64,000 nucleotides of DNA from Nitrospinaceae bacterium (GTDB lineage: Bacteria; Nitrospinota; Nitrospinia; Nitrospinales; Nitrospinaceae). The position numbers are program-made. Below are positions 50,101 to 53,100 of this stretch, in pieces; position 1 is the stretch's first letter; every line of letters begins with the position of its first letter. The DNA lies in contig OZ245011.1 in NCBI GenBank assembly GCA_965223665.1, positions 128,001 through 192,000 of the forward strand, read 5' to 3'.

Positions 50101-53100
50101 AAAATTTGAGAATATCGCATAATAAGTATTTAAATGATTTGATTACATCAGATGATTATTCAAATCATTAACAAAAAGCACCTAACCAAAGTTAGGCATT
50201 AACGATTTAAAAACAATTAATTTATTCTTAATCTTAAATGGGAAAGCGCGGAGGTTATACTGGCGTTTTGGTGGAATACAACTCCCGAGCCAATTCAATA
50301 TCCTGCGGAAAGTGTATTTCCAACCAACCTTTATGGATTTCTAAGTAATGTATATCAAAACCACGATCGACCATTTCTTGAAGTAGGTCTGTAAATCGAA
50401 ACTTAGAAATATCCTCAGCCTCTTGGATTTTTCCGACATGATTTTTGACACAATCATCGTAAGTATTTAAAAACTGCTCAGCTCCCCTTGGAGAGAACTT
50501 TGCCAACCCAACAAATTCATGGGTTGAGATGCTTGAGTCAATTCTCTTGCCGATTTTAGCAACTGTATTTTGATAGTCAAAGTTTATGTTGCGACGGAGA
50601 CGATTTTTTTTATTCTTGCTTACTACAAAATCCTGTAATTTTCCCGGAGTAGGCCCAAGGTATTGAATGGAATTGTCAACGACAACTACAATATCTTCTT
50701 TACAAGCTAATAATTGGCTGAATATGTTTTCAGCGACTAACAAATCGGAATATAAAATCAGAAATCCATTTTGAAGCTTATTTTTAGCCGCTAAAATTGA
50801 ATGAAGTTCGGTTCCTTTTTTGTAGTCAGTATGATGTATAAAGTTAACGCCTTCAGCACTCATTTTGCCGTTTTCATATCCCGTAATTACATTGATATCA
50901 GTTAAAAAATTTGCGTTCAGTGCTTCAATTTGCCTTTTCAAAAGGGTTTTTCCTGAAATTTCAAGCATGGCTTTGGGTATACTTCCAATAGCGGACTGAA
51001 GATCAGGGGCCGAACCTGCAGCTGGAATAATTACGGGTATATTTTTATTGGAAACATCCTGCTTATCTTTTTCTTTTACATCCAGAAATCCAACTGCTTC
51101 AAAAATTTCCTTTACCGGGGTGCAAAATGGGTCTGCTTCGAAAGATCGTTGATTTAACAATATGGATCTTGTCGTATCCATCATGGCTTTATAAGCTGAC
51201 CGTAAAAGATGGTTTGCATAAATAATAATTTGAAATCCTGATTTTTGTAATTCTGATTCCACAATGTTGTTATAAGTGGTAGGTACACAAACCAGAGGTT
51301 TTTTTACTCCCAATTCAGCTTGAAGGTCTTGATATTTTTGTGCGAACTCTAAAATTTCCCCAGGGTCTTTTGATTTTGAATGGATCATTATCCCATCTGC
51401 CCCTGCGGTTAAATATGCGCGAGCCCTTTGTAGAGCATCCTTTAATCCTGTTCCTGCAATCAGGCTTTCCAAACGGGCGATAATCATAAAGTCCGGTGTC
51501 ATTTGAACCTCTTTGCCTCGACGAATTTTGTGCGCAAATACTTCCGGTTCTTGCAACGATTGATTGGTTCCAGCTTCTAAGCTATTTCTCTTAGGAAATA
51601 CTTTGTCTTCAATAATGACAGCTGAAACTCCTGCACGTTCTAACTTTGAAACCGTATATTCAAAAATATTTGGATCTCCGCCCGTATCGCCATCAACAAT
51701 CATGGGTTTCCGAGTGACCGCTAGAATTTCGTTGATCGTATGAAATCGGGAATCAAAACTAATAACTTCAATATCTGGGTGACCTTTGGAGGCTGAATCT
51801 GTCAAGCTGCTTTCCCAAATAGCATCAAATTCTCTAATTATAGTATCATTTTCAAAAGTTCCCTCAATTCGAGCACAATCTGCAATAATACCGCTCAATC
51901 CATTGTGGGCTTCCATTACTCGAATAAGTTTTCCCTGGTTCAATAGTTTTCTTAACTGGTTGCGTCGGTTTTCGGGTAATATTTTACTTAAAAGAGTCAT
52001 TTATTTTCGTCTCAAAAATTTCGTGATTTAGATATTCCCTAATCCATGAAGCTATATAAATTTCTTCGGTATCGTAATTTTTAAAGGCTTCAATCAGAAC
52101 TTTCATTTGGTTCAAAATTGGAAGTTTTTTATCTAAAAAAACTAATCCTTTTCCATTTAATTTGCAAAACCCACTTTTAATAGGGATATCTTCATTAGAA
52201 AGGTTAAAATATTGGATATCAATTCCTAATTTATCTGCCACCGATTTTAATTCTTCCCACCGCTGGTCATTATTATAGGTTTTGGCTAACATAAATACCC
52301 TTTAAGCCATTGAAATTAAGTCAGTTAATAATTCTCATGATATCATTATAAAAAGCAAAAATCATTAGAGATATGAGCATAAATAATCCAACTTGCGAAG
52401 CTCGTTCTCGATTTTTCTCGCTTACGGGACGGCCTTTTATCATTTCAATTAAAAAGAAGAAAATGTGACCACCATCTAAAATTGGAATGGGCAATAGATT
52501 TAATAACCCCAGGTTAATACTTAAAAGGGCGGTTAATCGAATGAGTTCGTTAAAGCCCTGTTTTGCCTGTTCACCATATATTTGAAAAATCAGAATAGGG
52601 CCACCTATGCTTTCGGCGGAAATTGAACCGAATATCATTTTTTTTATGCTGGTAAAAATTAGATAGATTAATTTCCCAGTTTCAATAAATGAACGTTTAA
52701 TTGCTCCAAAAAAACCATATTGCTCGAGAATCAGGTCTCCTGTAATGGCAATTCCTAACCAGCCCAACTCTATTTCTTTTCCGTTTTCATCTTGAATGAT
52801 TTTAGATTCAGGAGTTACTTTGATTTCTAAATCTAGCCCATCTCTTTTGATTTGAACATTTAACTCTTTTCCCGCTTTGTCTTTGGTGGTTTCTTTAAGA
52901 TCGGTCCAACTACGGATTTTTGTTCCATCAATGGAAACTAATTGATCTCCCTCTAATAATCCCGCTTTATGAGCTGCTGAGCCCTCTTTGACATAGCTTA
53001 TATTATGAACCAAAGGGTTAATGCCAATCAGTCCCACCCTTTCTTTTTCTCCAAATAAATCAGGAACTTCTTCCGTGACAGGAGTGATTCCTACTTCAAA

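Follow-up and report, generated by a model that had tools for sequence, protein, structure and literature searches.

What does a protein that joins a phosphoenolpyruvate (PEP) mutase-like half to a nucleotidyltransferase-like half do in a Nitrospinales genome, and does it belong to a complete phosphonate pathway? The gene, pepM, lies at 50255..52000 (minus strand) of the window, by which we mean the whole 64,000-nucleotide stretch analysed, and encodes 581 amino acids with the Pfam domains PF13714 and PF12804. Its mutase domain (residues 16-302, window 51095..51955, minus strand) scores 354.1 bits on TIGR02320, above the curated cut-off of 319.55, has the PEP mutases 5UNC and 1M1B as closest solved structures, and carries the PEP mutase signature EDKx5NS (defined in PMC6697681 and PMC8942020) at residues 131-140 (51581..51610, minus strand), where it reads EDKVFPKRNS. 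Residues E131, D132, K133, K137, N139, S140, R176 and H207 are invariant in 33/33 order sequences. Judged by these features, the window gene encodes a PEP mutase; phosphonopyruvate hydrolase was rejected on a model score of only 166.9 (cut-off 374.4) and the motif, and methylisocitrate lyase likewise on scores and motif. The syntenic pepM site is anchored downstream by proS (48411..50120) and upstream by rseP (52321..53691), both on the minus strand, and its surroundings further include lolA, purN and an lpxC fusion, so that the fusion protein and the lpxC-purN-lolA-rseP-proS run described by the first-pass annotation were both recovered. A 102-aa ORF overlapping the pepM start (51984..52292, minus strand) has no match to Pfam or NCBIfam; it was rejected as a pathway gene because it is retained in a genome that lost pepM and the pathway (G002). 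Recent transfer of pepM into the source genome of this stretch (G000; G-numbers label the order genomes compared) was also rejected, given normal GC and neighbours constant across the order. Counts of promoters and terminators were not above those in shuffled sequences.

Two further steps of a route from PEP to 2-aminoethylphosphonate (AEP) map to loci outside the window on contig C1, all on the minus strand: the two halves of a thiamine diphosphate (ThDP) enzyme, ppdA (contig 2863802-2864302) and ppdB (2863258-2863818), and a transaminase gene, aepT (63754-64854), whose product scores 374.4 on TIGR03301 and passes the cut-off of 360.8. The decarboxylase halves reach 128 and 185.3 bits on TIGR03297 from two ORFs, each below the whole-protein cut-off of 312.5, and score about equally on the ComD/ComE models, where both again fall below cut-off (134.8 against 147.95 on TIGR03845, 180.9 against 221.5 on TIGR03846). 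These values reproduce the earlier assignments of a two-subunit decarboxylase (2863258-2864302) and an AEP transaminase, and with them the earlier suspicion of a ComDE-like enzyme, with which the pair shares its two-subunit build and similar scores. The genomic behaviour of the pair is nevertheless that of a phosphonopyruvate decarboxylase (Ppd) and not of ComDE: co-deletion with the other pathway genes, replacement by full-length Ppd and the operon context of relatives (see below) argue for Ppd, and ComA has no match in G000 and occurs in 2/102 order genomes, which largely removes the doubt. Split Ppds also occur in other phosphonate clusters (PMC8942020). In a tree, the split decarboxylases of the order fall into a single clade with support 1.0, within which genera and two families group together. 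Furthermore, each core gene has constant neighbours across the order loci examined, and the core loci are individually syntenic and unlinked on the chromosome, the latter as the first-pass annotation had proposed for three of them. An SDR beside ppdAB and a 233-aa ORF beside aepT were rejected as pathway genes, the SDR and the 233-aa ORF (G003, G071) being kept where the pathway is lost.

The survey covered 102 Nitrospinales genomes, 51 of them high-quality, against the 22 used previously. pepM exceeds the TIGR02320 cut-off in 84/102 genomes and is found by protein query in 89/102; a decarboxylase is present in 94/102, and a transaminase in 90/102 at E<=1e-60. Only 50 of these 90 pass the TIGR03301 cut-off, in a family that includes the catabolic PhnW, which speaks against a reading as AEP synthesis. 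By hand tally the complete trio occurs in 80/102 genomes and in 44/51 of high quality; a claim of near-universality thus survives as about 86-96%, depending on the measure, and not as 100%. The trio is absent altogether from four genomes (G002, G003, G047, G090), where one had been reported. Of these, G090 (77% complete) also lacks the flanking markers and is therefore not counted as a loss; the absence of pepM from G099, where a contig end truncates proS, may reflect an assembly gap, and gaps in G015, G032, G033, G043 and G056 were not covered by the loss check. Elsewhere in the phylum pepM was found in 1/18 members, and the trait is specific to the order. PhnJ, already thought to be missing, was found in 0/102 order genomes with a responding control, PhnX in 0/102 in a search without a positive control, and G000 gave no match to LicD, Fe-ADH, PhnJ, PhnA or ComA.

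Patterns of loss and replacement connect the dispersed genes. Two lineages (G047; G002/G003) have lost pepM, ppdAB and aepT from sites whose neighbours are intact, and in G047 rseP directly abuts proS. One genome with the deletion bears NxrA and is 97% complete, and a second lineage shows the loss too; the pathway is dispensable, and calling it a core trait is not supported. In four genomes, not two as first counted, a full-length Ppd over cut-off substitutes for the split pair. The closed genome G071 has kept pepM, has lost ppdAB and aepT at their ancestral sites, and has gained a full-length Ppd (484.5 bits) and a further AEP transaminase (417.2) with a CDP-alcohol phosphotransferase after it. 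Taken with distribution and synteny, these patterns support, for most Nitrospinales, a dispersed route from PEP to AEP that is passed on vertically.

The second half of the window protein is a LicC/PntC-like nucleotidyltransferase (NTase) domain (residues 319-581, window 50258..51046, minus strand) that is conserved and non-canonical. It scores 38.3 bits on PF12804, has LicC 1JYK as best PDB match (E 3.9e-9), and across 33 genomes shows a mean identity of 57% with 60 invariant positions; a single-sequence fold prediction was unusable (pLDDT 34). PntC has the consensus GxG(T/S)Rx4-8PK, in which R15A abolishes activity (PMC6697681). Unlike that enzyme, the fused domain lacks the second Gly and the Arg15 equivalent in 33/33 sequences, with the Lys, and in the window protein the PK, kept (site at 50972..51022, minus strand). 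A fourth locus holds a stand-alone PntC-like gene (contig 3108045-3108821, minus strand) with GxG(T/S)R..K, DxD and EID motifs in 30/30 loci, PHK replacing PK and one sequence having GAR; its product weakly resembles Tde-PntC (E 3e-4) and is 23-30% identical to the operon NTases described below. The determinants of PntC preference for AEP or phosphocholine are steric (PMC6697681). The stand-alone gene is missing at an intact site in both loser lineages, again at an intact site in G048, which keeps pepM, ppdAB and aepT, and in 10/17 g22 genomes (59-86% complete). With the fused domain lacking a PntC-defining residue in all 33 genomes, the separate gene is the better candidate for an activating enzyme.

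Candidates for a subsequent transfer step in G000 are two CDP-alcohol phosphotransferases, at contig 3228403-3229656 (minus strand; best candidate) and 3405580-3406515 (plus strand), and neither could be firmly assigned. The 311-aa phosphotransferase was rejected as a strict pathway partner since its presence does not track pepM: it is missing in pepM-positive G007, and a shorter type replaces it in G013 (with pepM) and G047 (without). The 417-aa phosphotransferase has no ortholog in the closed, pepM-positive G030; some members of its family adjoin inositol-1-phosphate synthase, and deep nodes of its tree have support of 0.4-0.7. At the PntC site, family f3 carries a 2OG-oxygenase, an NTase and a CDP-alcohol phosphotransferase; the oxygenase has no match in G000 and none at this site outside f3. 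Replacement of phosphatidylethanolamine (PE) by a phosphonolipid was rejected, pssA and psd being present. The nearest outside relatives have ppdA-ppdB-aepT-NTase(-CDP-alcohol phosphotransferase) operons: at the 36 nearest outside PpdB loci, aepT comes next in 33, with an NTase in 27 and a CDP-alcohol phosphotransferase in 14. In Ca. Binatia, ppdAB-aepT-NTase follow MlaC- and MMPL-family genes and face genes for a GT21 and a B12 radical SAM protein, neighbours that we take to be a hopanoid-type set (hpn names); the operons of Scalindua lack any hopanoid setting.

A gene for an uncharacterised (alpha/alpha)6-barrel protein accompanies pathway genes in several lineages. Present in 59/102 order genomes and absent from G000, it adjoins the NTase at those order loci that were examined; among metagenome loci with upstream sequence, 45/45 place a PepM-like or NTase gene next to it. 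Its product has weak SQHop_cyclase matches, and a fold search gave generic (alpha/alpha)6 matches only, with glycoside hydrolases/epimerases and terpene cyclases at Z 27.5 and 27.3. An Atlas lookup returned family-level names only.

We propose that the mutase domain would convert PEP to phosphonopyruvate, that the two-subunit ThDP enzyme would decarboxylate this to phosphonoacetaldehyde and so pull the unfavourable first step, and that the class V transaminase would yield AEP; family scores, motifs, co-deletion and replacement make these three steps very probable. AEP would then become CMP-AEP, most likely through the stand-alone PntC-like protein, with the non-canonical fused domain perhaps contributing. 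Transfer of AEP to a lipid alcohol would fall to a CDP-alcohol phosphotransferase (best candidate as above) and yield a phosphonate counterpart of PE alongside ordinary PE. We infer activation and lipid transfer from gene context in relatives only. That no phosphotransferase candidate strictly tracks pepM counts against the lipid outcome, as do the absence of the stand-alone NTase from G048 and many g22 genomes and its weak resemblance to Tde-PntC and the operon NTases. Read from genes, motifs, distribution and synteny as a whole, an unclustered, vertically inherited AEP pathway feeding a membrane phosphonolipid is the account that we favour on balance.

AEP made by the same route might instead decorate a surface glycan, lipopolysaccharide or glycoprotein, as described for Prochlorococcus (PMC8931226) and B. 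fragilis (PMC8942020). CMP-AEP serves lipid and glycan outcomes alike (PMC6697681) and the loose phosphotransferase association would fit, but LicD has no match in G000, none of the three core loci examined has a glycosyltransferase linked to it, and both the replacement cassettes and the outside operons carry CDP-alcohol phosphotransferases; we regard such a phosphonoglycan as unlikely, if worth keeping in mind. Attachment to, or synthesis with, an isoprenoid lipid such as a hopanoid, the barrel protein acting as tailoring enzyme, seems to us a good deal less probable. G000 does have a squalene-hopene cyclase over cut-off, and the Ca. Binatia context and the cyclase matches and position of the barrel gene point the same way; against this stand the patchy presence of that gene, a fold that suits glycoside hydrolases/epimerases equally well, and the Scalindua operons. 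We know of no precedent for an AEP-hopanoid link.

More doubtful again is that AEP or a simple derivative is a free small molecule (an osmolyte, a phosphorus store or an exported compound), with the NTase and phosphotransferase serving inositol or other head groups. The state of G048, the lost Arg of the fused domain and the two-domain phosphotransferases that neighbour inositol-1-phosphate synthase in G002, G003 and G064 would all be explained, yet both loser lineages have lost the NTase along with the other genes, and outside operons unite it with aepT and a phosphotransferase. Least probable, and only slightly less so, is that the three genes have nothing to do with one another, the split enzyme being ComDE, the transaminase catabolic and pepM an orphan. 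Equal decarboxylase and ComDE scores, PhnDEC transporters in most Nitrospinota (PMC10839748 supplement) and the 'degradation system' that PMC5029188 reports for Ca. Nitromaritima RS lean that way; the loss of all three together from intact sites in two lineages, canonical Ppd in place of the split pair in four genomes, the near or complete absence of ComA and PhnJ, in searches that did not extend to cysteate synthase, ComC, PhnY or PhnZ, and aepT following split-pair relatives at 33/36 loci weigh against it.

Among known systems, the phosphonolipid reading comes closest to Group 1, the clusters called 'Burkholderiales CDP-OH' in PMC8942020, which share a Ppm-PntC fusion, Ppd, AEPT, a second PntC and phospholipid genes, and from which no phosphonolipid has yet been characterised. 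Group 1 is a contiguous seven-gene cluster, whereas in Nitrospinales the core genes are spread over four to five unlinked loci, the Ppd is split and inheritance is vertical across the order; the 2OG-Fe oxygenase of Group 1 was matched here in f3 only, where it completes the gene set, while G000 lacks both that match and a firm phosphotransferase assignment. The AEP pathway of Bacteroides fragilis and Treponema denticola (PMC6697681) shares the first three enzymes and LicC-like activation but is clustered with glycan genes or LicD. Prochlorococcus, SAR11 and Nitrosopumilus are likewise pepM-bearing marine plankton (PMC8931226, PMC9381506); by those accounts the trait there is rare, is confined to a fraction of each group and often runs via PhpC/MpnS, whereas most Nitrospinales have the whole route and G000 has no Fe-ADH match. 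More speculatively, Nitrospinales, Ca. Scalindua, Ca. Binatia and some Nitrospira could share an undescribed phosphonate-lipid branch defined by the split decarboxylase, two NTase domains, the barrel enzyme and a PEP-mutase-like protein that occurs in some lineages and fails the motif filter (EDNx3KRCS); its product, a new and possibly hopanoid-linked phosphonate lipid, might be abundant enough to mark marine nitrite oxidisers as a lipid biomarker and to form a sizeable mesopelagic phosphonate source, a proposal we hold to be improbable at present.

We found no report of phosphonate synthesis in Nitrospinales or Scalindua in paper titles or abstract openings; the earlier conclusion that there was none does not extend to data tables, as pepM, aepY and phnW are recorded together in 9/12 Nitrospinales genomes, including N. 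gracilis 3/211 (PMC9381506 supplementary file 11), and a high-confidence Nitrospina PepM is listed in PMC8931226 dataset S1. Gene presence in Nitrospina is therefore already in two supplements on which the main texts are silent, and no phosphonate route is commoner than AEP synthesis (56% of neighbourhoods, PMC8942020); both limit the novelty. Similarly, the prediction that mining would miss the pathway fails for pepM itself, which pepM-based surveys caught, but holds for the rest, because neighbourhood-based classification cannot assign so dispersed a route. The pathway behaves like core metabolism in being unlinked, syntenic, co-lost and repaired by foreign genes, and two uncharacterised proteins of phosphonate lipid synthesis are indicated. 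If an order of abundant nitrite oxidisers nearly all carries the route, it may be an overlooked marine phosphonate source: the producers are little known, PMC8931226 giving three experimentally proven groups, and mesopelagic pepM, at up to 45% of communities, is credited to archaea in PMC9381506, whose text leaves Nitrospina unmentioned.

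On sequence evidence, the Nitrospinales (the order) are an overlooked group of putative 2-aminoethylphosphonate (AEP) producers, in which known chemistry would be encoded in an unusual genomic arrangement. The first-pass annotation had placed a PEP mutase fused to a nucleotidyltransferase (NTase) in this window (C1:128001–192000 of the 4.35-Mb genome G000), and this was confirmed: the 581-aa minus-strand ORF pepM (window 50255–52000) carries PF13714 and PF12804, scores 354.1 with TIGR02320 (cut-off 319.55; hydrolase and lyase models far lower) and contains EDKx5NS at residues 131–140 by motif inspection. 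Sections of PMC6697681 and PMC8942020 give EDKx5NS as the defining motif of PEP mutase; together with R176 and H207, it is invariant in 33/33 aligned order sequences. PepM-like/NTase fusions with EDNx3KRCS in its place were also observed, at L297:9014–10732 (genome G122), L298:9036–10790 (G123), L283:4471–6147 and L272:15–1688 and in 11 of loci L361–L419; the G122 fusion falls under the TIGR02320 cut-off (286.5), and two such fusions adjoin ppdA-ppdB-aepT. If these proteins are active, pepM surveys filtering by motif overlook them.

The split decarboxylase (ppdA-ppdB, contig 2863258–2864302) and the transaminase (aepT, contig 63754–64854) are likewise present where previously placed, and the initial observation now has stronger support. 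pepM is over cut-off in 84 of 102 order genomes (89 by protein query), the decarboxylase is found in 94, and 90 carry the transaminase at E≤1e-60, with 50 of them exceeding its cut-off. The earlier tally of 21 genomes in 22 with all three genes, and one with none, holds in that most genomes carry the route (80/102 and 44/51 high-quality by hand tally, including G000 and all nine single-contig genomes), although four lack all three. Independent loss would predict 0.12 such genomes, a contrast that is overstated, since related genomes and assembly gaps do not count as independent losses. Outside the order, one of 18 phylum members matches (34–35% identity), in ordinary clusters. Over 90 loci examined, neighbours are kept at each site: rseP-ORF-pepM-proS, SDR-ppdA-ppdB and DUF4159/aepT. 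In G047, a 97%-complete genome with an NxrA-like gene, rseP and proS are direct neighbours, the SDR gene abuts an ABC transporter and the DUF4159 gene stands without aepT alongside, all mid-contig; G002 and G003, of another family, show between them the same three deletions. The three core genes probably work as one unit. The rearranged aepT neighbourhood of G048 (L359, G048:C39:12000–30000) is common to G047, and G048 may represent pathway loss under way. A gene that we take to be NxrA-like, from a motif plus 92–99% conservation (no NXR-specific model passed), occurs in 49/102 order genomes (0/5 in genus g9, 0/2 in g7). Contig ends frequently truncate it, and the nitrite oxidiser label therefore does not extend to every genome counted.

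The first-pass annotation had doubted whether the split pair is a phosphonopyruvate decarboxylase (Ppd) or a ComDE-like sulfopyruvate decarboxylase, and scores alone do not separate the two: the ThDP-enzyme halves reach 128 and 185.3 bits with TIGR03297 and 134.8 and 180.9 with ComD and ComE, all below cut-off (the G000 transaminase is above that of TIGR03301). A full-length Ppd over cut-off, without the split pair, was found in four of 102 genomes (G032, G069, G070 and G071) rather than the two reported. In the closed genome G071, the split pair and ancestral aepT are missing from their sites and pepM is retained; a cassette elsewhere encodes full-length Ppd (484.5 bits) and a different AEP transaminase (417.2), together with a CDP-alcohol phosphotransferase, TylF methyltransferase and B12 radical SAM enzyme. 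A tree of 44 decarboxylases, which included no true ComDE, groups the split pairs of the order in a single clade (support 1.0) and puts the full-length enzymes far outside. Among 36 outside-order loci examined of 80 (Ca. Scalindua, Ca. Binatia, Nitrospira and others), aepT lies directly 3′ of ppdB in 33, followed by an NTase in 27 and a CDP-alcohol phosphotransferase in 14; a PepM-like gene is adjacent in two, and elsewhere in 5/5 genomes searched (two exceeding the cut-off, a truncated one that has the motif, and two of non-canonical type). ComA occurs in 2/102 order genomes, G000 not among them. Taken together, the joint deletions, Ppd replacement, tree, outside operons and ComA rarity make ComDE identity unlikely, and the route from PEP through phosphonopyruvate and phosphonoacetaldehyde to AEP very probably runs as proposed. 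Marine anammox Ca. Scalindua carries ppdA-ppdB-aepT-NTase-CDP-alcohol phosphotransferase operons (L249–L253, L255, L256, L260, L262, L277, L280), with pepM outside them in the two genomes checked, hinting at possible lipids with a phosphonate head group; a literature search by listing found no paper on phosphonate synthesis there.

Beyond AEP, genomic context slightly favours conversion to CMP-AEP and transfer onto a lipid alcohol. In every aligned order sequence, the fused NTase domain lacks both the second Gly and the Arg found in GxG(T/S)Rx4-8PK, and Tde-PntC requires that Arg (PMC6697681); with mean identity of 57%, 60 invariant positions and the Lys kept, the domain is not decayed. A stand-alone NTase at a fourth locus (contig 3108045–3108821) has canonical motifs in 30/30 loci, with orthologs in 73/102 genomes (any match, 78), and is gone from an intact site in G002 and G047. 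Counting against its part in this step are the low identity to the operon NTases (23–30%), its absence in 10/17 g22 genomes, and G048, where the three core genes are present but this NTase and the barrel gene described below are missing at an intact site. In family f3, the same site holds a 2OG-oxygenase and a different NTase, plus a CDP-alcohol phosphotransferase in g9, completing the Group 1 phosphonolipid cluster inventory (PMC8942020 section 13). Directly before the NTase in many order genomes lies a 322-aa gene (59/102, 0/18 others, not in G000). Genes for this conserved protein, such as those at L318:2260–3228 (G040) and L297:7957–8940 (G122), stand beside phosphonate genes wherever flank exists. 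The order's version shares 37% identity (E 3e-82) with the one that follows the Ca. Binatia PepM-like fusion; among 59 metagenome loci, some duplicated, the family has directly upstream a PepM-like fusion in 17 and a stand-alone NTase in 28 (19 with ppdA too), the other 14 having <200 bases of upstream flank. Its predicted model (pLDDT 92) is an (alpha/alpha)6 barrel with equally good matches to glycoside hydrolases, epimerases and class II terpene cyclases; our guess is that it might tailor the lipid acceptor.

G000 encodes three CDP-alcohol phosphotransferases: PssA beside psd, a 311-aa protein (~21 bits with TIGR00560, PgsA) and a two-domain 417-aa protein (no match), with whose family the outside-lineage operon enzymes group, weakly supported, in a tree. 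Orthologs of the latter two are absent in both loser lineages (G047 and G002/G003), G047 having PssA and a 257-aa type only; some pepM-positive genomes also lack them, so both are no more than candidates for the last step. No canonical PgsA was among the CDP-alcohol phosphotransferases found in G000, G047 and G013, and LicD had no match in G000. Compared with lipid transfer, decoration of a glycan by AEP seems unlikely, a hopanoid-linked product improbable and free AEP as a solute a shade more so, and mutually unrelated core genes are the least credible reading. G007 (L301:6498–9291) carries a second cassette, aepT-CDP-alcohol phosphotransferase-NTase, besides the core genes.

The reported absence of C–P lyase stands (PhnJ 0/102, control matched); PhnX had 0/102 in a search where no control matched; PhnA was not over cut-off in five genomes, and two Fe-ADH queries gave no match in G000. 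Phosphonate uptake and degradation noted for Ca. Nitromaritima RS in part of PMC5029188, and PhnDEC in most Nitrospinota (PMC10839748 supplement), count against a pure-producer picture.

Contrary to the claim of no report, gene presence is already in supplementary tables. In the portion of PMC9381506 supplementary file 11 covering 12 Nitrospinales genomes, nine have pepM, aepY and phnW and none phnA, phnX, phnY, phnZ or phnIJM; PMC8931226 dataset S1 includes high-confidence PepM entries for N. gracilis 3/211 and several Nitrospina genomes. The PMC9381506 main text contains no “Nitrospin”, that of PMC8931226 has Nitrospina in a reference only, those of PMC10839748 and PMC8026999 contain no “phosphon”, and the PMC8942020 supplement contains no Nitrospina. 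No paper on the trait was found in the literature searched, with subscription papers and bioRxiv supplements outside its scope; order-wide conservation, dispersal, co-loss, replacement, the fourth locus and the barrel gene were not found there.

Elsewhere in the window, a sigma-54 response regulator (NtrX-like) is joined to LpxC in one 741-aa ORF (55072–57297, minus strand), of comparable length in G066 (735 aa) and G002 (699 aa). Adjacent plus-strand ORFs of 723 and 805 aa (window 6025–10610) presumably resemble sucrose-phosphate synthase and sucrose synthase.
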